64,000 nt of DNA from an uncultured Gammaproteobacteria bacterium (lineage in GTDB: Bacteria; Patescibacteriota; Microgenomatia; Levybacterales; GWA1-39-11): contig CAYRKM010000002.1 in NCBI GenBank assembly GCA_964425075.1, positions 64,058-128,057 of the forward strand. Direction: 5' to 3'. Below are positions 6,207 through 45,869 of the stretch, in pieces. Positions within the stretch are counted from its first letter, which is position 1. The number at the start of each line of letters is the position of its first letter. A model generated the notes under the pieces. That model saw only the letters and a list, made by a program, of their open reading frames with translations, ran no database searches and had not been told where the DNA came from. The position numbers were made by a program, and so were the translations under genes.

Positions 6207-7660
6207 GTTTTAGATTGTAATATATTTTCCTCAATTATCATAGCGTCTTGTAATACTTTTTTAGAATTTGGCTTGTATTCCAAAAGTGGTTGAGCATTTT
6301 TCTCCCAAGAGTCAATTATCGGATCTATAAAATTCCACATTGCCTGAACTTCGTCCGTTGATACAAAGAGTAATTGGTTACCCAAAATACAATCTAAAAG
6401 TAATTTTTCATATTCTTCTACATACTGAGCGCGTTTTTTCCTTTCATCCCTATAAAGAAATGATAGGCGCTGAAGCTCCATCGAATATTCAAGCCCAGGT
6501 TTTTTTGACCAAAATTCAATTGCTATTCCTTCCCGAGGGTCAAGGGAGAATATAACTTTATTTTTAAAATGCATACCTGAAGGACAAAGGCATGGTTTAT
6601 TATGCTTAAAAGTGACTACAATCTCCTTGTTGTCGACAATCTTTTTCCCTGCCTCAATTATTATCGGAACATTTTTCCATTGAGATGATTTAAGCATTGC
6701 CACCAATTTAAAATATGTTTCTGTTTTTGAATTTTTACTAACTCCTTCCTCATTTTTATAACCCACAAACTGCGCCCGAAACGTCTTCTCGGTAACTTCA
6801 CGCATGGAAAGAGGTATCAGCTCTTCAAGAACTTTTGAACGAGCTTGCCTTACGTGTATGGGCGTCAGGTCTATGGGTTGCTCCATTGTAAGAAGAGCAA
6901 GCATCTGAAGCGCATGATTTTGCCCGACATCACGAAGAGCACCAATCCCATCATAAAATCCACCACGACTGTCAATTCCCATCTTTTCGAGAAGCCGGAT
7001 TTCTATTTTTTCTATATGCTCATTATTCCAAGTTTTTTCGAATAAATCATTCGAAAATCTAAAAGAAATAATATTTTGCATCATGTCTTTACCTAAATAA
7101 TGGTCAATTCTATAAATTTGCTCTTCCTTAAATAATTTACCCAATAATTCATCTAGTTCTTGGGCAGTATGAGCATCTTTTCCAAAAGGTTTCTCAACAA
7201 TAACCCGTGTCCATCCCTCTTCAGGACTACAGGGAAGAGTAAGACCTGATGAGTGAAGGTGTTCAAAAATGCTTTGGTAGTTACTTGGGGGAACAGCAAG
7301 ATAAAAAAGCTTGTTGGAGCAGGCTCTCCACTCATCATCCACCCGGCCTAAGTATGTTGCCATTTCGTTGTACGCATCTACTTCATCAAAATTTCCTTTT
7401 CTGTATTCAAAATATTTCAAAAAAGCATCAACATCACTTACTTTTATCCTTCTGTCTCGATTGTCTGAAAGAATTTTTCTAACATGCTCCTTGTATTCAT
7501 CCTGAGATATATCTCTTCTAGAAAATGCTATGATCTTGAAAAGATTAGGAAATTTACCACTTTTGTAGAGATGGAAGAGAGCAGGGGTAATTTTCTTGGC
7601 CATCAGATCCCCCGTGGCACCGAAAATGATAAATACTGTGGGGATATTTTTGTTTTCCAT
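6203..7660 (-). CDS. zwf: glucose-6-phosphate 1-dehydrogenase
   Basis: IFGATGDLMAKK dinucleotide motif, EKPFG, and the RIDHYLGK active-site motif. It overlaps gnd by 4 nt. Confidence 0.9.
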   Translation of the reverse strand: MENKNIPTVFIIFGATGDLMAKKITPALFHLYKSGKFPNLFKIIAFSRRDISQDEYKEHVRKILSDNRDRRIKVSDVDAFLKYFEYRKGNFDEVDAYNEMATYLGRVDDEWRACSNKLFYLAVPPSNYQSIFEHLHSSGLTLPCSPEEGWTRVIVEKPFGKDAHTAQELDELLGKLFKEEQIYRIDHYLGKDMMQNIISFRFSNDLFEKTWNNEHIEKIEIRLLEKMGIDSRGGFYDGIGALRDVGQNHALQMLALLTMEQPIDLTPIHVRQARSKVLEELIPLSMREVTEKTFRAQFVGYKNEEGVSKNSKTETYFKLVAMLKSSQWKNVPIIIEAGKKIVDNKEIVVTFKHNKPCLCPSGMHFKNKVIFSLDPREGIAIEFWSKKPGLEYSMELQRLSFLYRDERKKRAQYVEEYEKLLLDCILGNQLLFVSTDEVQAMWNFIDPIIDSWEKNAQPLLEYKPNSKKVLQDAMIIEENILQSKT

Positions 7661-13871: not shown

Positions 13872-13981
13872 GTATTACGTATTTTCTTGCCTCACTCATC
13901 CGTCCGAAGGTCGGATGAGCGGGATAAGAACACTTCGCCCTGCTCAGAACCTTGTCCCGTCAAAAAATCCTAGATTTTTTG

Positions 13982-15893: not shown

Positions 15894-16114
15894 GTCGGGG
15901 ATAAAGCAAGTTTGTCCCCTTCTTCATTTCATTCAGTCGGGGATAAGGAAACCTTGTCCCCACCAAATTCTTCGAGTTTGTCGGGGATAGAGGACTCGTT
16001 CTGTGAAACAGCCTGCAAGACAATCCGACCTGCCGAAGGCAATAATGTCGGGGATAGAGGACTCGTTCTGTGAAACAGTCTGCAAGACAATCCGACCTGC
16101 CGAAGGCAATAATG
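15894..16114 (-). repeat. tandem truncated tRNA-Pro-derived repeats downstream of tRNA-Pro
   Basis: GTCGGGGATA recurs starting at 15894, 15936, 15980, 16047 and 16114. The last copy is the true tRNA 3' end. The two 67-nt units (15980-16046, 16047-16113) differ at 1 nt and carry 19 nt of the tRNA T-arm/acceptor 3' side. Confidence 0.85.
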
Positions 16115-16187
16115 TCGGGGATAGAGGACTCGAACCTCCGACCTCACGGTCCCAAACCGCGCGCTCTACCAACTGAGCTAATCCCCG
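16115..16187 (-). tRNA. tRNA-Pro (TGG)
   Basis: Hand-folded. Acceptor CGGGGAT/ATCCCCG, anticodon loop TTTGGGA, T-loop TTCGAGT. Confidence 0.9.
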
Positions 16188-19530: not shown

Positions 19531-19628
19531 GAACTCGCAAAGTGAACGAAACTAAAGTGCCTGCGCTGAATGAAGCTGAAGTGCTTGCACTGAGTGAAGC
19601 TGAAGTGCTTGCACTGAGTGAAGCGAAG
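19531..19628 (-). repeat. tRNA-trailer tandem repeats (24-nt unit with AGTGCWWGCACT box)
   Basis: Units GAAGTGCTTGCACTGAGTGAAGCT at 19578-19601 and 19602-19624. A variant unit sits at 19554-19577 and a degenerate unit at 19531-19553. The array abuts the 3' end of tRNA-Ala. Confidence 0.85.
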
Positions 19629-19699
19629 TGGACCCGAGGGGAATTGAACCCCTCCCTCATCCATGCCATGGATGCATTCTACCGATGAACTACGGGCCC
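19629..19699 (-). tRNA. tRNA-Ala (GGC)
   Basis: Hand-folded. Acceptor GGGCCCG with the G3:U70 identity pair, anticodon arm CATCC-ATGGCAT-GGATG, T-loop TTCAATT. Confidence 0.9.
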
Positions 19700-19735: not shown

Positions 19736-19800
19736 GAAGTGCCTGTGCTGAGGAACGTAAAGACGAAGTGCCTGCACTGAGAAACGTAAAGACGAAGTGC
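19736..19800 (-). repeat. 29-nt tandem repeat (2.2 copies) of the same box family, upstream of tRNA-Ala
   Basis: GAAGTGCCTGTGCTGAGGAACGTAAAGAC (19736-19764) and GAAGTGCCTGCACTGAGAAACGTAAAGAC (19765-19793), then GAAGTGC. Confidence 0.8.
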
Positions 19801-21679: not shown

Positions 21680-21754
21680 TTTGCCTGCACTGAACAAAGC
21701 TGAATGTGCTTGCACTGAACAAAGCTGAATGTGCTTGCACTGAGTGAAACGAAG
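21680..21754 (-). repeat. tRNA-trailer tandem repeats (three 25-nt units)
   Basis: Units at 21680-21704, 21705-21729 and 21730-21754 (TGTGCTTGCACTGAACAAAGCTGAA and variants). The array abuts the 3' end of tRNA-Leu(TAA). Confidence 0.85.
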
Positions 21755-34975: not shown

Positions 34976-35029
34976 GAGTCCTCTCAGGCCCACTTCGTCC
35001 GCCTACCGGCGGACTCAGTGCGGGCACTT
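34976..35029 (+). repeat. displaced duplicate of the tRNA-Leu(GAG) 3' end carrying the CTTC...AGTGCGGGCACT trailer
   Basis: The 17 nt GAGTCCTCTCAGGCCCA at 34976-34992 equals 34922-34938, and the trailer-family sequence follows it. A 5'-end fragment TTTGGGCTTGTCCTGA at 35056-35071 matches 34852-34867 at 15 of 16 positions. Confidence 0.8.
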
Positions 35030-35089
35030 TTATAAATATAGAATAGGTTTTCCTTTTTGGGCTTGTCCTGAGAAGGCAAAGCCGACGAA

Positions 35090-35264: not shown

Positions 35265-35519
35265 ATGCAATATTTTGTGTACATTCTTGAATGCAGTGAT
35301 GGTTCGCTTTATACAGGCTATACAACTGATATAGAGCGAAGGGTGAAAGAGCACAACAAAGGAAAGAGCGGAGCTAAGTCTGTACGAGGGAAATTACCTG
35401 CCGAATTAGTTTACTCCGAAACCTTTGTAACTCTTTCAGAGGCATTGAAACGAGAAGCTGAAATCAAAAGTTGGAAGAGATACGAAAAACAAATGTTAAT
35501 AGCGACGAAGCGGGCGTAA
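35265..35519 (+). CDS. GIY-YIG nuclease-superfamily protein (stand-alone URI domain)
   Basis: 84 aa. YVYILECSDGSLYTGYTTDIERRVKEHN is the canonical GIY-YIG block. It starts 6 nt after tRNA-Phe. Confidence 0.85.
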   Translation: MQYFVYILECSDGSLYTGYTTDIERRVKEHNKGKSGAKSVRGKLPAELVYSETFVTLSEALKREAEIKSWKRYEKQMLIATKRA

Positions 35520-37350: not shown

Positions 37351-37491
37351 GATGTGCCTGCACTGTGCAAGAAGTGTTACGTTGTGAAACAAAGTCTCGA
37401 AGTGCTTTCATCGATCAAGAAGTGCTTGCGCTGAACGAAATGGAAGCCTGCACTGAATGAAGTTGAGGTGCTTGCACTGAACGTAGTGAAG
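37351..37491 (-). repeat. tRNA-trailer repeat array downstream of tRNA-Leu(CAG)
   Basis: On the minus strand it reads CTTCACTACGTTCAGTGCAAGCACCTCAACTTCATTCAGTGCAGGC..., with 4-5 boxes of the AGTGCWWGCACT family that degenerate with distance. Confidence 0.8.
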
Positions 37492-39253: not shown

Positions 39254-39352
39254 CTTCACTACGTTCAGTGCAAGCACCTCAACTTCATTCAGTGCAGGCT
39301 TCCATTTCGTTCAGTGCAAGTACTTCGGGGCCTTGTTTCTCAGCGCTTGCAC
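39254..39352 (+). repeat. tRNA-trailer repeat array downstream of tRNA-Leu(TAG)
   Basis: The first 72 nt (39254-39325) match the reverse complement of 37420-37491 at all but 2 positions. Four boxes of the AGTGCWWGCACT family are present. Confidence 0.85.
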
Positions 39353-42972: not shown

Positions 42973-43010
42973 CTAGCACACAAAATTTTAAAAGAAAGGA
43001 GGAAAAAAAT

Positions 43011-43241
43011 ATGAGCGAAATATTAAGAAGAGCAGGTTATCATAGCACTCTTGCAGACGTTGGTACTCTACGTGAAGCAAGACCAGCTAACCATCACACC
43101 ACTAATATGCCAGATGGTGATTTGCCTGTTTTTGATCAGGAACAAGCCGAATTTGGATATCCTGCGCAATCAGCATTACCAAAAGAAACGCCTATGCCAG
43201 AGTCCTTGCTTCATGCAGGAGAACCTTTGAAGATTTTATAA
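43011..43241 (+). CDS. 76-aa hypothetical small protein
   Basis: ATG preceded by AAAGGAGGAAAAAAAT. No family recognised. Confidence 0.6.
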   Translation: MSEILRRAGYHSTLADVGTLREARPANHHTTNMPDGDLPVFDQEQAEFGYPAQSALPKETPMPESLLHAGEPLKIL

Positions 43242-43299
43242 TATTAAGAGTTTCTTGATTTGAGGCAAAAAATACATTACACTACGGAAAAGTGAACAA

Positions 43300-43451
43300 T
43301 TGGTTCAGTTGGTTGCGATGAATTCATTCATCGAGCGATGTTAGAAGTGTGGAGTTGTAACTCAGTTGGGGTTCGACTTTTGAAAAATGGACTCATAAGC
43401 AGAGTTTGCTTTTTGTTTTCGAAAAGTAGCTCAGTTGGTTACATTTTGTGT
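43300..43451 (+). repeat. tRNA-fragment debris (D-arm-like pieces) upstream of tRNA-Val(GAC)
   Basis: CAGTTGG-containing D-arm-like strings at about 43302-43315, 43358-43377 (with GGTTCGAC) and 43427-43441. The last, TAGCTCAGTTGGTTA, is identical to 43459-43473 inside the tRNA. Confidence 0.7.
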
Positions 43452-43525
43452 GGACGATTAGCTCAGTTGGTTAGAGCGTTGCATTGACATTGCAAAGGTC
43501 ACAAGTTCGAATCTTGTATCGTCCA
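43452..43525 (+). tRNA. tRNA-Val (GAC)
   Basis: Hand-folded. Acceptor GGACGAT/ATCGTCC, anticodon arm TTGCA-TTGACAT-TGCAA, T-loop TTCGAAT. The flanks 43442-43451 and 43525-43534 extend the acceptor helix to 17 bp. Confidence 0.9.
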
Positions 43526-43534
43526 CACAAAATG

Positions 43535-43623
43535 CGCTGAAGCGTTGCATTGACATTGCAGAGGCCAGAGAAGGAATTTCATTAATGAAATTCGACTGTC
43601 GTCAGCGAATCCTCTTGGGTCCA
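43535..43623 (+). pseudogene. decayed tRNA-Val-like remnant
   Basis: 20 nt at 43541-43560 are identical to the anticodon arm at 43475-43494. The remnant ends in ...GGGTCCA directly followed by the CTTCACTTCGTTCAGTGCA trailer. No intact T-arm or acceptor is present. Confidence 0.45.
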
Positions 43624-43690
43624 CTTCACTTCGTTCAGTGCAGGCACTTCAGTTTCGTTCAGCACGGGTACTTCGTTACACTCAGCACAG
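43624..43690 (+). repeat. tRNA-trailer repeat array
   Basis: CTTCACTTCGTTCAGTGCAGGCACTTCAGTTTCGTTCAGCACGGGTACTTCGTTACACTCAGCACAGACAC, i.e. three progressively degenerate units. Confidence 0.8.
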
Positions 43691-43702
43691 ACACATTTTC
43701 CC

Positions 43703-43751
43703 ATACTTGATACATACTTCAAAATACTTAATACTTAATACTAAATACTTA
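43703..43751 (+). repeat. ATACTTA heptamer microsatellite just upstream of the HD-domain gene
   Basis: ATACTTA/ATACTTA/ATACTAA/ATACTTA in tandem at 43724-43751, plus ATACTTG at 43703-43709. It ends 10 nt before the ATG at 43762. Confidence 0.7.
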
Positions 43752-43761
43752 ATTCTTTCTT

Positions 43762-44340
43762 ATGACCCGGCAAGAGGCATATCAAACACTACAGCTATAT
43801 ACAAAGTCTCAAACTCTAATTCGCCATCATTTGGCAGTTGAGGCAGCCATGCGTGCTGTTGCAAAAAAACTCATTTCTAAAGGTATTGAAAACATTGATA
43901 TTGAGCTTTGGGGGTTAACTGGACTGTTGCATGACGCAGACTACGAGATTACACGCAAAAATCCTGAAAGACATACTCTTTATCTCGAAGAAAAACTAGG
44001 CAAAACCCTTCCCCCAGGCGTAATTCAAGCAATAAAATCTCATAACAGCAAACACACAAACACTCAGCCCCAAACACCTATGGACTGGGCACTTTTCTGC
44101 GTAGATGAGCTTACAGGATTTGTTATCAAAACTGCGATGCTTACGAATGACAAGAGAATAGCAAGCCTTTCCTCGGACGGAGTGATATTACAGATAAACG
44201 ATAAATCAAATGCGAAATATGTAAAAAAAGAGCAAATTCTCGCATGCGAAACTCAACTTCACATTCCACTAAAAGAATTTGTAGAGCTCGTCCTTAACTC
44301 GATGAAGACTGTTGCAAACCAGCTTGGATTTACTCAATAA
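43762..44340 (+). CDS. HD-domain phosphohydrolase
   Basis: HHLAVEAAMRAVA ... LTGLLHDADYE (H...HD...D pattern). Confidence 0.75.
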   Translation: MTRQEAYQTLQLYTKSQTLIRHHLAVEAAMRAVAKKLISKGIENIDIELWGLTGLLHDADYEITRKNPERHTLYLEEKLGKTLPPGVIQAIKSHNSKHTNTQPQTPMDWALFCVDELTGFVIKTAMLTNDKRIASLSSDGVILQINDKSNAKYVKKEQILACETQLHIPLKEFVELVLNSMKTVANQLGFTQ

Positions 44341-44347
44341 TAGAAAT

Positions 44348-44569
44348 ATGGAACCTGTTGAAAAAATACACCGCTCTAGGGGGAAAATGATGTTTGAAAA
44401 TTTCCTGGGTGGTATTGCTTGGTCGCTTGGGGTTACATTTGGATGGGCTATAATAATTGCGATAATTGCTATAGTCCTTTCAAAAATCAACTATGTGCCC
44501 GTAGTTGGCGATTTTATTTTAAATATAATAAATTATGTTGCAAAACATCAAAGCCCTTTTTCTTTTTAA
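44348..44569 (+). CDS. small membrane protein (DUF5665-like)
   Basis: I use the ATG at 44348. FLGGIAWSLGVTFGWAIIIAIIAIVL...VPVVGDFILNII resembles DUF5665 from memory. Confidence 0.55.
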   Translation: MEPVEKIHRSRGKMMFENFLGGIAWSLGVTFGWAIIIAIIAIVLSKINYVPVVGDFILNIINYVAKHQSPFSF

Positions 44570-44618
44570 AAATGCTTTCCATCTTCAATCTTGAGGCTAT
44601 TTCTGTTAGAATACATAC

Positions 44619-45869
44619 ATGGATGATTTAGCACCAAATGACCACAAAAGACTTGGCCGCGAACTTGGTCTTTTTACGTTTTCCGACACTGTAGGAAAAG
44701 GACTGCCACTTTTTACCCCAAAAGGCTCAGTTATTAGACGCGAGTTAGAGCGTTTTATTGTTGACGAGGAGTTAAAGCGAGGCTACCAACACGTATATAC
44801 CCCTGACATTGCAAAGCTTGAATTGTATAAAAAATCAGGACATTATCCCTACTACAAAGACTCTATGTATGCCCCAATCACTATAGAGGATGAGGAATTT
44901 ATGCTTCGTCCCATGACTTGCCCTCATCATTTTGAGCTTTATCTTACTCGTCCACATAGCTACAAAGAACTTCCAATGAGAATCGCAGAGCTTGCAAAAC
45001 TGTATAGATTTGAGCAATCAGGTGAGCTAATGGGCCTGCAACGCGTACGGACATTTTGCCTAGCTGATGCCCATATTATTACCTCGCTTATAAATGTTGA
45101 AGAGGAAATCCAAAGCGTCCTTGATCTTATTGAATTTATTGCAAATACATTCAAACTCGAACAAGGAAAAGACTATCGTTATCGATTATCTTTGGGGGAC
45201 AGGAAGGACAGTAAGAAATACTTTAAAGATGATGCTTCTTGGGATATGGCAGAGAAAACTTTAAAAAAGGTATTAACCGACAGAAAAGCTCACTTTGTTG
45301 AAGCTGAAAATGAAGCAGCGTTTTATGGTCCAAAAATTGATATTCAAATGAAAAACACTAATGGTAAAGAGGATACAGCCTTTACTGTCCAGCATGACTT
45401 TGTTATGCCAAAACGTTTTGAATTAAGATATATAAATGAAAAAGGAGAAGAAGAGCAACCTGTTGTCATACACCGCTCATCAATTGGTGCAATTGAGCGT
45501 GTGATGGCTTTTTTAATAGAACACTATAAAGGCGCTTTCCCAATGTGGTTATCCCCTGTCCAGGCGGTTGTAATGGCAGTTTCTGATAAGTTTGATGCAT
45601 ACGCAAAAGAAGTATTTGAGGAGTTAAAAAGCAATGGGATTAGGGTTGAATTCGACAATTCTAATAACACGCTTGGTAACAAAATCCGTGAGGCTACTTT
45701 ACAAAAAGTACCCTACATGTGTATAATAGGCGGTCAGGAAGAACAAGAGTTTAAAGAAAGTGGAAAAAGAGTAATTACAGTAAGAACCCGAGAAGGAAAG
45801 GATCTGGGCAAGAAAGAACTTGACGAATTTATCAAGGGATTAAAAAAAGAAATTGAGACCAAACAATAA
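44619..45869 (+). CDS. thrS: threonyl-tRNA synthetase, catalytic core plus anticodon-binding domain only
   Basis: The protein starts at the DHKRLGRELGLF motif. It has FMLRPMTCPHH and class II motifs and is 416 aa, with no TGS or editing domains. TGTTAGAAT ends 6 nt before the ATG. Confidence 0.85.
   Translation: MDDLAPNDHKRLGRELGLFTFSDTVGKGLPLFTPKGSVIRRELERFIVDEELKRGYQHVYTPDIAKLELYKKSGHYPYYKDSMYAPITIEDEEFMLRPMTCPHHFELYLTRPHSYKELPMRIAELAKLYRFEQSGELMGLQRVRTFCLADAHIITSLINVEEEIQSVLDLIEFIANTFKLEQGKDYRYRLSLGDRKDSKKYFKDDASWDMAEKTLKKVLTDRKAHFVEAENEAAFYGPKIDIQMKNTNGKEDTAFTVQHDFVMPKRFELRYINEKGEEEQPVVIHRSSIGAIERVMAFLIEHYKGAFPMWLSPVQAVVMAVSDKFDAYAKEVFEELKSNGIRVEFDNSNNTLGNKIREATLQKVPYMCIIGGQEEQEFKESGKRVITVRTREGKDLGKKELDEFIKGLKKEIETKQ

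Follow-up and report, generated by a model that had tools for sequence, protein, structure and literature searches.

As judged from sequence comparison, the working tRNA-Val(GAC) gene at positions 43452–43525 of the window (the whole 64-kb stretch of DNA that was analysed) is shown to sit within the remains of an older tRNA-Val(GAC) gene, which was a different allele. The same nesting is found again in ultra-small relatives (Microgenomates/CPR bacteria), an indication of repeated tRNA gene replacement, probably at the DNA level, and not of a special RNA-processing stem. The preferred reading, to which a probability of about 0.6 is given, is that the gene was inserted or replaced at the DNA level, at a tRNA locus prone to recombination where tRNA-Val(GAC) genes have piled up one after another at a conserved site. 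The sequence features listed in the initial annotation of the region are all present, far beyond chance. Its view of a partially duplicated and eroded tRNA-Val locus is borne out by collinear pieces that reconstruct an older, different allele, and its suggestion of a recombination hotspot holds, as the same nesting is found in relatives.

The working gene and its chromosomal site

Only one tRNA was found by ARAGORN and Rfam between 43200 and 43800, the tRNA-Val(GAC) at 43452–43525 on the forward strand. The gene is intact, has A as discriminator and does not encode CCA; its Rfam score of 74.7 bits is the top tRNA score of the window. No second tRNA was reported in this interval by ARAGORN or by Rfam, even at a permissive E ≤ 10, and a further intact tRNA or pseudo-tRNA nearby is rejected on these grounds. 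The sole echo of the tRNA clan at E ≤ 10 in Rfam was an 18-bit match to mt-tmRNA over 43384–43447.

The chromosomal site is conserved, with the order trigger factor, DUF5660, further ORFs, tRNA-Val, HD hydrolase and ThrRS. The ORFs between 40 and 47 kb encode trigger factor, DUF5660, three small proteins with no Pfam match, HD, DUF5665, ThrRS and IF3. No nuclease, integrase or transposase gene is found at the tRNA-Val locus, which counts against the preferred reading. The spacer that holds the tRNA is 520 nt long and consists mostly of tRNA wreckage, compared with 164 nt in a relative with a clean gene. When promoters and terminators were scanned over 43150–43850, nothing upstream of the tRNA rose above shuffle expectation; TTGATT-17-TACACT at 43255–43283 scores 8/12, under the scan threshold.

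Remains of an older tRNA-Val gene

The fragments around the working gene keep their collinear order: those from the 5′ part lie upstream of it and those from the 3′ part downstream. A full-length ghost is obtained from 43389–43397, 43429–43441, 43541–43570 and 43606–43623. With GA placed between the second and third pieces, the reconstructed gene aligns end to end with the L046-type tRNA-Val, with about 67 of 74 positions identical, a covarying 7:66 pair, one extra base and a 3-nt deletion in the T-loop; it matches the inner tRNA less well. The acceptor stem is GGACTCA/TGGGTCC in the old gene and GGACGAT/ATCGTCC in the inner one, and the T-stems are AGAG-/CCTCT and ACAAG/CTTGT, respectively. 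The old gene is broken by three insertions. The first, of 31 nt, follows nucleotide 9; the second, of about 100 nt, lies in the D-arm and consists of the working tRNA and its flanks; the third adds 35 nt to the T-loop.

In the collinear reconstruction, the 5′ end of the old gene lies at 43389–43409 (forward strand), with GGACTCA-TA (43389–43397) followed by AGCAGAGTTTGC. The acceptor strand at 43389 pairs with TGGGTCC at 43616–43622; the minimum free energy fold closes on that pairing, and the 236-nt region folds with this outer acceptor stem as closing helix (z = −5.1). The 9-nt piece 43389–43397 is only roughly assigned, by pairing and context (p ≈ 0.02), and can be parsed otherwise. The first 21 nt are identical at 18 positions to an element upstream in L061; such a match is odd for junk, as the neighbouring HD proteins are merely 56% identical.

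The exact 15-nt copy of the D-arm described earlier was recovered at 43427–43441 (TAGCTCAGTTGGTTA, forward strand), of which 43429–43441 is read as nucleotides 10–22 of the old tRNA. Nucleotides ~23–53 lie at 43541–43570 on the same strand (AGCGTTGCATTGACATTGCAGAGGCCAGAG) and comprise the 3′ strand of the D-stem, the GAC anticodon arm, the variable region and the 5′ strand of the T-stem. This piece starts with the previously noted exact copy of the anticodon arm (20 nt, 43541–43560; 93% over 27 nt). The T-loop insertion, 35 nt at 43571–43605, contains an unsplit palindrome (43574–43593) and a second T-loop-like TTCGACT. The 3′ end, CGAAT-CCTCT-TGGGTCC-A at 43606–43623 (forward strand), supplies the 3′ half of the T-loop, the T-stem, the acceptor strand and the discriminator, and is 94% identical over 18 nt to nucleotides 57–74 of the L046 tRNA-Val. 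The downstream segment, taken at first to be a decayed stretch of ~90 nt, indeed terminates in TGGGTCCA (43616–43623), is followed by trailer repeats and measures ~83 nt. The joined exons lack the three T-loop bases G53-T54-T55 and have an extra base in the D-stem. They are not accepted as a tRNA by ARAGORN. As the three T-loop bases are lost, the old gene is a pseudogene.

Further debris lies upstream, where three D-arm-like fragments had been counted. Such fragments exist, and at least four 5′-type pieces were found, at 43294–43314, 43351–43369, 43389–43409 and 43427–43441. The first (ghost a, forward strand, GAACAATTGGTTCAGTTGGTT) is the decayed 5′ part of a tRNA-Val; 43292–43314, as the reference copy, is 83% identical over 23 nt to 43450–43472. 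It is followed at 43316–43333 by an A+T hairpin with an 8-bp stem and a 2-nt loop, CGATGAAT-TC-ATTCATCG, located between a D-loop-like GTTGGTTG and AGCG, which is the position of D-arm insertions in relatives. The second (ghost b, forward strand, GGAGTTGTAACTCAGTTGG) corresponds to nucleotides 1–19 of a third tRNA-Val allele (GGAGTTG) and is 95% identical over 19 nt to the start of the inner tRNA of L029. It follows GTGT, as the working gene does, and a T-loop-like GGTTCGAC (43370–43377) is fused to it. The 13 nt at 43376–43388 (forward strand, ACTTTTGAAAAAT) are identical to those immediately 5′ of the inner tRNA-Val in L043/L117.

Both A+T hairpins of the initial annotation are present, the second at 43574–43593 rather than 43573–43593. 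Hairpins are weakly enriched near tRNAs at 7-bp stems (6/49); the enrichment is clear only at stems of at least 8 bp, of which 5 of 11 lie within 200 nt of a tRNA, compared with 7.7% of sequence space. Downstream, three trailer units of 23, 24 and 23 nt occupy 43625–43694 (forward strand). Members of this family directly follow four other tRNAs of the window; here they stand behind the old 3′ end, not behind the working tRNA. They have a short core alone in common with the widespread '...CTTCGACTACGCTCAGGATGAC' hairpin arms of L016, L040 and L115, and these loci are not recovered at E ≤ 10 by a profile of the window units.

Nested tRNA genes in relatives

Valine tRNA genes are nested in valine tRNA genes in L029 (split in the D-stem), L087 (split at 37/38), L023 and L043. 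L043 further contains a Leu(CAG) gene together with a GIY-YIG ORF inside Leu(CAG), and an old Gly(GCC) whose anticodon loop holds a Gly(GCC) gene; in L065 a Leu gene lies in a Leu gene. When the inserts are removed in silico, the outer genes of L029, L087 and L043-Leu fold as perfect cloverleafs; those of L023, L043-Val and L065 have lost whole loops. The anticodons of inner and outer genes are identical in all six readable nested cases. Partial self-copies are carried by 15 of 121 tRNAs in Microgenomates-type loci and 1 of 65 elsewhere (Fisher p = 0.012), in a set of loci that was chosen with a tRNA-Val pattern and over-represents Val. Their 5′ pieces are upstream and their 3′ pieces downstream in each of the 16 such tRNAs.

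The inner tRNA of the window is found elsewhere only in L043/L117, where CCA is encoded and the flank pairing is displaced and imperfect; a compensatory A-T to G-C change distinguishes the T-stem from that of the L043 copy. A metagenome scan with a 52-nt pattern of this tRNA returned one contig, identical to L043. Among the closest relatives as defined by the HD protein (66–58% identity), three have no tRNA-Val at the site and the next closest has a clean gene, which speaks for an unstable locus; none of the four bears on the flanks. Neither a donor copy nor an empty-site allele was found in a close relative, which counts against insertion.

It is unlikely that the wreckage arose from local slippage or unequal recombination between repeats of the D-arm and anticodon arm, followed by decay and with no imported or mobile DNA. 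In favour of this reading, the tRNA-Pro of the window has undergone a tandem partial duplication (67 nt × 2.3, 98% identity), L245 holds two units of a leader and a Phe 5′ fragment, inner and outer genes of L061 share the acceptor stem, and ghosts a, b and d include leader-like bases resembling the leader of the working gene. However, the outer gene and ghost b (GGAGTTG) are alleles other than that of the inner gene, and inner and outer acceptor stems are unlike in 7 of 8 nested cases. Slippage yields neither a complete gene within a gene, nor palindrome halves at the junctions, nor a GIY-YIG ORF inside an old gene. Elsewhere in the window, copies of the 3′ ends of tRNA-Pro, Leu(GAG) and Gly(UCC) resemble the class of fragments left by integrating elements.

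Origin of the 17-bp helix

The left flank of the working gene (CATTTTGTGT, 43442–43451) and the right one (ACACAAAATG, 43525–43534, whose first base is the discriminator), both on the forward strand, form the two halves of a perfect 20-nt palindrome, split by the tRNA at its dyad, and the 17-bp helix thereby arises. The extension of the acceptor stem noted initially is confirmed: the arms 43442–43458 and 43518–43534 are 100% complementary over 17 nt. The tRNA and its flanks fold at −37 kcal/mol (z = −5.6), and the probability of 10 extra perfect pairs at a fixed register is ~1.6 × 10⁻⁶, as estimated from base composition. Seven of the 17 bp are the acceptor stem; outside the tRNA there are 10 bp, one of which uses the discriminator. 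The pair of halves is found nowhere else in the 64-kb window.

Inverted repeats also flank the nested tRNAs of relatives, with unrelated sequences and variable spacing: perfect over 10 bp in the window, 9 bp in L023, and imperfect over 10 bp in L029, L087 and L065. Halves of the form CCTGCC(C/T)GCC...GGC(A/G)GGC(A/G)GG bracket the inner tRNAs of L029, L087, L065 and L043-Gly, and these GC-rich ends are common to four cassettes in four genomes. Palindromes of 20 nt also occur unsplit, with no tRNA inside, in this wreck and in those of relatives. The one at 43574–43593, GAATTTCATT|AATGAAATTC, is perfect and has no loop, and the 20-mer CCTGCCTGCCGGCAGGCAGG is found in loops of old tRNAs. The recurring flank repeat most plausibly represents a palindromic DNA insertion, of which each flank has one half. 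As the repeats differ wholly between loci, no single end-recognising enzyme is implied, and no target-site duplication is visible at the junctions.

Two candidate relationships were discarded. A search of viral contigs for palindrome halves 78–104 nt apart gave 120 matches, all of them in phage DNA of high GC content and none enclosing a tRNA; these were attributed to chance. ATTTTGTGT, shared by the left flank and the start of the GIY-YIG gene (35272; also at 42986, and on the opposite strand in the right flank at 43533), was likewise judged a chance occurrence.

There is little probability that the helix is a selected RNA element, either an RNase III-like site or a stem that insulates the folding of the tRNA in a fragment-rich transcript. 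The perfect pairing is very unlikely by chance, other nested tRNAs have complementary flanks, and flank sequences that change under maintained pairing can be read as structural conservation; the duplex of the 30-nt flanks has z-scores of −4.1 in the window, −3.2 in L087 and −5.2 in L043-Gly, values below −3 being reached by just 3% of tRNAs. Yet of the 186 tRNAs examined, this gene alone has an acceptor stem that continues directly for more than 5 extra bp; the 185 others, among them orthologous Val(GAC) genes at the syntenic site, do not. A conserved rRNA-like or RNase III-type stem, as the initial annotation had suggested, is consequently unsupported, and the complementarity expected in relatives is not conserved as the direct 17-bp helix. 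The same inner tRNA dispenses with it in L043/L117, where CCA is encoded, spacing and register of flank pairing range from 0 to 19 nt, and palindromes exist unsplit with no tRNA enclosed. Cleavage in a helix that includes the acceptor stem would also destroy the tRNA.

RNA splicing and assembly as explanations

It is very improbable that the arrangement operates at the RNA level as a tRNA within a tRNA, the insertions being introns and the outer exons being joined into a second functional tRNA. The sites of insertion (D-arm, 37/38, T-loop) do resemble those of archaeal multi-intron tRNAs; the outer exons are well conserved, being intact in L029, L087 and L043-Leu, and the outer acceptor stem closes the stable fold described above. 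Against this, the joined window exons have the T-loop and D-stem defects that go with rejection by ARAGORN, and outer genes of three relatives have lost entire loops. By hand threading, no bulge-helix-bulge can be formed at the junctions of L029 (D-stem), L087 (37/38) and L043 (37/38); on inspection, pairing is impossible between the two 4-nt stretches that precede the 5′ and 3′ bulges. Rfam gave no sign of a group I intron, at the gathering threshold in the window or at E ≤ 10 in 43200–43800. Bacteria are moreover not known to possess a tRNA splicing endonuclease, which also counts against introns.

A metagenome assembly artefact joining strain variants of one tRNA gene is hardly credible: the region is rich in repeats of 15–27 nt and the independent contig L001 breaks exactly where the repeated D-arm ends, but L001, from an independent assembly, is identical over 43474–44814, L043 is identical in a separate JGI assembly (700-nt string match and reading across the tRNA-Val region), and the architecture recurs with different sequences in many independent MAGs.

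GIY-YIG genes and a possible mechanism

Very small GIY-YIG genes are found near several tRNAs. Their products have 79–88 residues, nearly the whole length of which is spanned by PF01541 (E = 1e-15 to 1e-18) with no extra domain; those of 84 residues are predicted catalytic domains only. In L096, an ORF of this kind separates a Val 5′ ghost from the Val gene, and in L043 another separates old from new Leu; one in the window (35265–35519, 84 residues) adjoins a Gly ghost. At further loci with GIY-YIG homologs, the ORF is sandwiched between tRNA genes in 4 of 5. None is present at the tRNA-Val locus of the window.

Under the preferred reading, insertion or replacement at the DNA level, a promoterless DNA segment with a complete, diverged tRNA-Val would insert into the resident gene, its tRNA would be transcribed from the resident promoter, and RNase P and RNase Z would release it from a long transcript. 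As the promoter scan of 43150–43850 gave nothing significant upstream of the tRNA, use of the upstream promoter is proposed from −10-like boxes read before the outer genes of L023, L029, L043 and L087. Disruption of the resident gene would be tolerated only because the insert brings the same anticodon; such a requirement would account for the constant agreement between inner and outer tRNAs. The 17-bp helix would be a by-product of insertion and not a conserved processing signal. The driver may, more tentatively, be a homing-like break and repair tied to the GIY-YIG genes, which in the window and in relatives are sandwiched by tRNA genes or separate old tRNA pieces from new ones. Alternatively, uptake of foreign DNA could be anchored on the conserved tRNA core.

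Comparison with known systems

Breaks made by T4 SegB-type enzymes lead to preferential inheritance or rearrangement of the tRNA region, and the element is harmless since a working copy travels along. As in that system, a GIY-YIG gene lies between tRNA genes at some loci here. In contrast, the present proteins of ~80 residues are predicted catalytic domains without a DNA-binding domain, and the Val locus of the window has no such ORF. A tRNA nested in its cognate is, to our knowledge, not a described outcome of Seg-type homing. T4 SegB belongs to the free-standing GIY-YIG homing endonucleases of phage tRNA gene clusters (cf. PMC13096335).

Integrating elements leave tRNA fragments as attL/attR duplications at tRNA genes, as reviewed for prokaryotes (bioRxiv 10.1101/2022.07.05.498093). 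In both situations partial tRNA copies adjoin an intact tRNA and the tRNA gene is an insertion hotspot. Here, however, a complete tRNA is inside the old one, and fragments remain on both sides, 5′ ones upstream and 3′ ones downstream; the insert has only ~100 nt and no integrase, and palindrome halves stand at the junctions instead of a shared att core. The 3′ part of the tRNA is not repeated directly at both element ends at tRNA-Val, and no tyrosine or serine integrase gene lies in or beside the insert among the ORFs between 40 and 47 kb.

IS1397 and ISKpn1 insert into the centre of palindromic units (REP/BIME), and REPINs are mobile hairpins. Insertion at a palindrome dyad and units of ~100 nt bounded by inverted repeats are shared with these elements, but the cargo is a tRNA rather than a transposase and the palindromes vary by locus. 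Terminal inverted repeats as in MITEs and REPINs are present; multiple copies with the same ends and target-site duplications were not found in the 64-kb window, and no RAYT or transposase was seen. The leader-trailer stems of rRNA operons, which are cut by RNase III, likewise enclose a mature RNA between paired flanks. In the present case the 17 bp include 7 of the acceptor stem, direct extension is conserved in no relative, and the 10 bp outside the tRNA fall short of the long outer duplex, of about two helical turns, that is typical of such stems.

Archaeal multi-intron, split and permuted tRNA genes (PMC4090602) are also broken at 37/38, the D-arm or the T-loop with complementary sequences flanking the break, but the loci described here are bacterial and have no bulge-helix-bulge, the outer gene is mostly decayed, and what intervenes is itself a complete tRNA with that very anticodon. 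In the same phylum, Patescibacteria, the anticodon loop of tRNA genes is interrupted by group I introns (PMC13011429; bioRxiv 10.1101/2025.07.03.662931); unlike the present inserts, in which no ribozyme was detected, these introns are self-splicing and hundreds of nucleotides long. Nested, duplicated or fragmentary tRNA genes are not mentioned in that work. Likewise, no account of nested tRNA genes, of tRNAs flanked by palindromes or of mini GIY-YIG genes linked to tRNAs in CPR was found in the literature searched.

Implications

CPR/Patescibacteria genomes are among the most streamlined known, an economy with which a spacer made of tRNA wrecks contrasts; about one in eight tRNA genes in related loci has partial self-copies. 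Nested loci mislead tRNA annotation, with genes missed or spuriously called, and break short-read assemblies at the repeated arms. The link to tRNAs suggests a testable role for the very widespread GIY-YIG proteins of ~80 residues. If tRNA genes are serially replaced by arrivals of the same anticodon, this would be a route for horizontal turnover of core translation genes, and may also represent a new class of selfish element, harmless because it brings along a replacement for the gene that it disrupts. Speculatively, Microgenomates may carry an undescribed, self-compensating mobile unit, consisting of a promoterless tRNA between ~20-nt palindrome halves, sometimes with a mini GIY-YIG gene, that enters the loop-coding parts of a resident tRNA with the same anticodon, seizes its promoter and function, and can be invaded again to build 'Russian-doll' loci.

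The working tRNA-Val gene and the remains around it

Positions 43200–43800 contain exactly one tRNA, a tRNA-Val(GAC) at 43452–43525, which has the top score in the window (74.7 bits) and does not encode CCA. The tRNA debris and the long stem that the initial annotation had described around this gene were recovered. The D-arm copy at 43427–43441 (15 nt) and the anticodon-arm copy at 43541–43560 (20 nt) are exact, the latter reaching 27 nt at 93% identity when extended. The downstream segment ends in TGGGTCCA (43616–43623) and is followed by three trailer repeat units (43625–43694). The 17-nt arms 43442–43458 and 43518–43534 are 100% complementary, and both A+T hairpins are present, the second (43574–43593) as a perfect, loop-less 20-nt palindrome. 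L001, a contig from an independent assembly, is identical to the window from 43474 onward, and its start coincides exactly with the end of the repeated D-arm.

The tRNA-Val fragments are collinear along the locus. Four pieces were joined: 43389–43397 (GGACTCA-TA), 43429–43441 (GCTCAGTTGGTTA), 43541–43570 (anticodon arm with GAC, variable region and T-stem 5′ strand) and 43606–43623 (CGAAT-CCTCT-TGGGTCC-A). Together they align over the full length of tRNA-Val(GAC) from GGACTCG-type relatives, with about 67 of 74 positions identical and both sides of the 7:66 pair changed. The joined gene has one additional base in the D-stem and three fewer in the T-loop, and was not accepted as a tRNA by ARAGORN. 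Its acceptor stem (GGACTCA/TGGGTCC) differs from that of the working gene (GGACGAT/ATCGTCC), as do the T-stems; the old gene is a different allele. The outer gene is a pseudogene, and the architecture is nested and collinear. The old gene is interrupted by 31 nt after nt 9, by the working tRNA and its flanking sequence (43442–43540) in the D-arm, and by 35 nt in the T-loop containing an unsplit palindrome. The trailer units adjoin the 3′ end of the old gene and not the working tRNA; as such units elsewhere start 1 base after tRNAs, 43623 is taken to be where the resident gene originally ended. The weakest link is 43389–43397, which probably belongs to the old gene judging from its pairing with the 3′ strand, the TA that follows and its homology in the related locus L061.

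Two further 5′ ghosts lie upstream. That at 43294–43314 is followed by the first A+T hairpin, inserted at the junction of D-loop and stem, and that at 43351–43369 (GGAGTTGTAACTCAGTTGG) is 95% identical to nt 1–19 of the inner tRNA of locus L029. Mini-helices consisting of an acceptor 5′ strand, TAAGA or TAAAC, a hairpin and an acceptor 3′ strand occur upstream of tRNA-Val in several lineages (L034; L043 at 6990–7100, oriented; L061; the window at 43389–43409). Between the window and L061, 18 of 21 positions are identical although the adjacent protein is only 56% identical, a conservation that appears too high for junk.

Nested tRNA genes in relatives

The nested layout recurs in relatives, in fresher and more decayed states. 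In L029, a canonical tRNA-Val is split after 24 nt, and its remaining 50 nt come after a complete but different tRNA-Val that has 16 nt on either side. In L087, a tRNA-Val is interrupted at 37/38 by a second, complete tRNA-Val. Outer Val genes that have lost or gained pieces are found in L023 and L043. L043 also holds a GIY-YIG ORF and a new tRNA-Leu(CAG) within an old tRNA-Leu(CAG), and an old tRNA-Gly(GCC) whose anticodon loop contains a new tRNA-Gly(GCC); in L065, a tRNA-Leu lies within an old Leu gene. After in silico removal of the inserts, the outer genes in L029, L087 and L043-Leu again formed perfect cloverleafs, and those in the window, L023 and L043-Val did not. This range from restorable to decayed is what insertion followed by decay predicts.

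Simple local slippage is argued against by the acceptor stems, which differ between inner and outer genes in 7 of 8 nested cases. Wherever the outer anticodon can still be read (six cases), it matches the inner one. When each of 186 tRNAs was searched against its own flanks, a count that misses differing inner/outer pairs, the 121 tRNAs of Microgenomates-type loci included 15 with partial self-copies, as against 1 among the other 65 (Fisher p = 0.012). All 16 have 5′ pieces upstream and 3′ pieces downstream.

Inverted repeats flanking the inner tRNAs

The initial annotation had made conservation in relatives decisive for its leader-trailer helix, and on that count a processing stem is not supported. 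The direct 17-bp helix is not conserved: of the 186 tRNAs, only the working tRNA-Val(GAC) has an acceptor stem lengthened by flank complementarity to this degree (10 bp, against 5 bp for the next best), and the inner tRNA recurs at a single other locus, L043 (identical to L117), where CCA is encoded and the flank pairing is displaced and imperfect. A stem with a role in the RNA, for example shielding the tRNA's fold within a transcript rich in fragments, may be envisaged, but conservation lends it no support.

Common to nested tRNAs is that an inverted repeat occurs at one place or another in their flanks: CGTTAAATA/TATTTAACG in L023, and CCTGCC(C/T)GCC/GGC(A/G)GGC(A/G)GG in L029, L087, L065 and L043-Gly. 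Once the nested tRNA is cut out, together with any short spacer, a palindrome of some 20 nt remains, and unsplit 20-nt palindromes of this kind are found in loops of old tRNAs (GAATTTCATTAATGAAATTC in the window, CCTGCCTGCCGGCAGGCAGG in L043). On these grounds, the flanks of the working tRNA are read as the probable halves of a palindrome separated exactly at its dyad by tRNA nt 1–72. The GC-rich palindrome also stands free, and there resembles a terminator hairpin downstream of rpmI, rplT and a tRNA.

Trailer units and copies of tRNA ends

The trailer units are tandem repeats of 23–25 nt (consensus about TTCAGCTTCAYTCAGTGCAAGCAC), always in the orientation of the tRNA. Arrays are located at 19543–19630, 21682–21753, 37422–37490 and 39255–39323 (also 19736–19800), and units start exactly 1 base after tRNA-Ala, Leu(UAA), Leu(CAG) and Leu(UAG). 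Relatives have single units directly 3′ of Phe (L010, L087), Val (L040) and Arg (L246), and L243 has one at a distance of 18 nt from Phe. The units of L243 and L246 separate the tRNA from the 5′ end of a GIY-YIG ORF.

Other tRNA ends are also copied. Downstream of tRNA-Pro (16114–16187), a 67-nt unit made of the last 18–19 nt of the tRNA, from the T-loop, and a 48–49-nt trailer forms 2.3 tandem copies that are 98% identical (15979–16132, minus strand), giving two extra 3′-end copies at 16047–16064 and 15980–15997. An 18-nt stretch at the 3′ end of tRNA-Leu(GAG) is repeated without change 36 nt past the gene, followed by a trailer unit with a GC hairpin (34976–35027); GGGCTTGTCCTGAGAAGG at 35059–35076, just upstream of tRNA-Val(UAC), is similar to the 5′ end of tRNA-Leu(GAG). 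About 55 nt downstream of tRNA-Gly(UCC), a 10-nt copy of its 3′ end (TATCCCGCTC) is directly followed by the hairpin ATCCGACCTTCGGACGGAT (13898–13926, minus strand).

GIY-YIG ORFs among tRNA genes

An 84-aa ORF at 35265–35519 encodes a GIY-YIG catalytic domain (PF01541, E = 5e-18). It starts 4 nt after tRNA-Phe, and its 3′ end runs into a mini tRNA-Gly ghost (to 35567) that immediately precedes the intact tRNA-Gly(GCC) and comprises an acceptor 5′ strand, TAAGAACC, an A+T hairpin, an acceptor 3′ strand and the first part of a trailer unit. The Phe-GIY-Gly order is kept in L043, L243 and L245. In L096, a homologue separates a tRNA-Val 5′ ghost from the intact tRNA-Val, and in L043 one lies within the old tRNA-Leu. 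Four of five further homologue loci have tRNA genes on both sides of the ORF, two of these four with a single trailer-type unit between the upstream tRNA and the ORF start.

These ORFs resemble the free-standing GIY-YIG homing endonucleases of phage tRNA clusters; unlike the latter, the proteins here have no DNA-binding domain. The window's Val locus has no GIY-YIG ORF. That GIY-YIG proteins might drive the nesting is a lead only; an alternative that fits as well is uptake of foreign DNA, homology-anchored on the invariant tRNA core.

Gene neighbourhood

The window has a G+C content of about 38% and 14 tRNA genes on both strands. The order around tRNA-Val is trigger factor, DUF5660, three small unassigned ORFs, the tRNA, HD-domain hydrolase, DUF5665, a 416-aa ThrRS, IF3, L35 and L20. 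Scanning species-representative genomes with the D-arm-to-anticodon-arm of tRNA-Val gave 115 loci, many from Levybacteria, Woesebacteria and other Microgenomates; the neighbour genes are also present at 55 of them. The window is accordingly read as part of a Microgenomates (CPR/Patescibacteria) chromosome. The tRNA-Val is missing before the HD gene in the three closest relatives (HD-protein identity 66–61%); the fourth-ranking relative (58%) carries a clean tRNA-Val gene. The tRNA-Val site itself is unstable.

In L118, the closest relative by HD protein, tRNA-Val is absent and the HD-gene start (ATGACTCGTCAGGAAGCC...) is partly duplicated about 130 nt 5′ of the real start (460–660), another sign of a rearrangement-prone spacer. 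Repeats of 7–10 nt of the ATACTTA type immediately precede the HD start codon (43702–43757), and comparable AT-rich ATACTT repeats are found before the orthologues in L061, L087, L118 and L120; they may form a conserved regulatory or ribosome-loading region. The window ThrRS (44619–45869) is without the N-terminal tRNA_SAD (editing-type) domain, which is present in the 589-aa orthologue at the same position in L121 (3318–5087).

Relation to known systems and proposed mechanism

The locus lacks the defining features of RNase III leader-trailer stems, att-type tRNA fragments left by integrating elements, archaeal multi-intron or split tRNAs, and patescibacterial group I tRNA introns. It shares part of those of IS elements targeting palindrome centres and of REPIN-like hairpins; SegB-type homing in tRNA clusters is also among the closest systems. 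The recent paper on interrupted tRNA genes in Patescibacteria (PMC13011429; bioRxiv 10.1101/2025.07.03.662931) says nothing of tRNA genes that are nested, duplicated or fragmentary, and no description of a tRNA nested in a tRNA was found in the searchable literature. The locus is classed as a variant of insertion-driven tRNA gene fragments and replacement; that it belongs to a separate class of self-compensating tRNA cassettes is less likely.

A promoterless tRNA segment would have been inserted at the DNA level and would be transcribed from the resident promoter. By reading, −10-like boxes are found 5′ of the outer gene in L023, L029, L043 and L087 and none before the inner gene; a promoter scan of 43150–43850 gave nothing above shuffle expectation upstream of the tRNA. 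RNase P and RNase Z would release the tRNA, to which CCA would be added later. The insertion would be tolerated because the insert replaces the function that it destroys.
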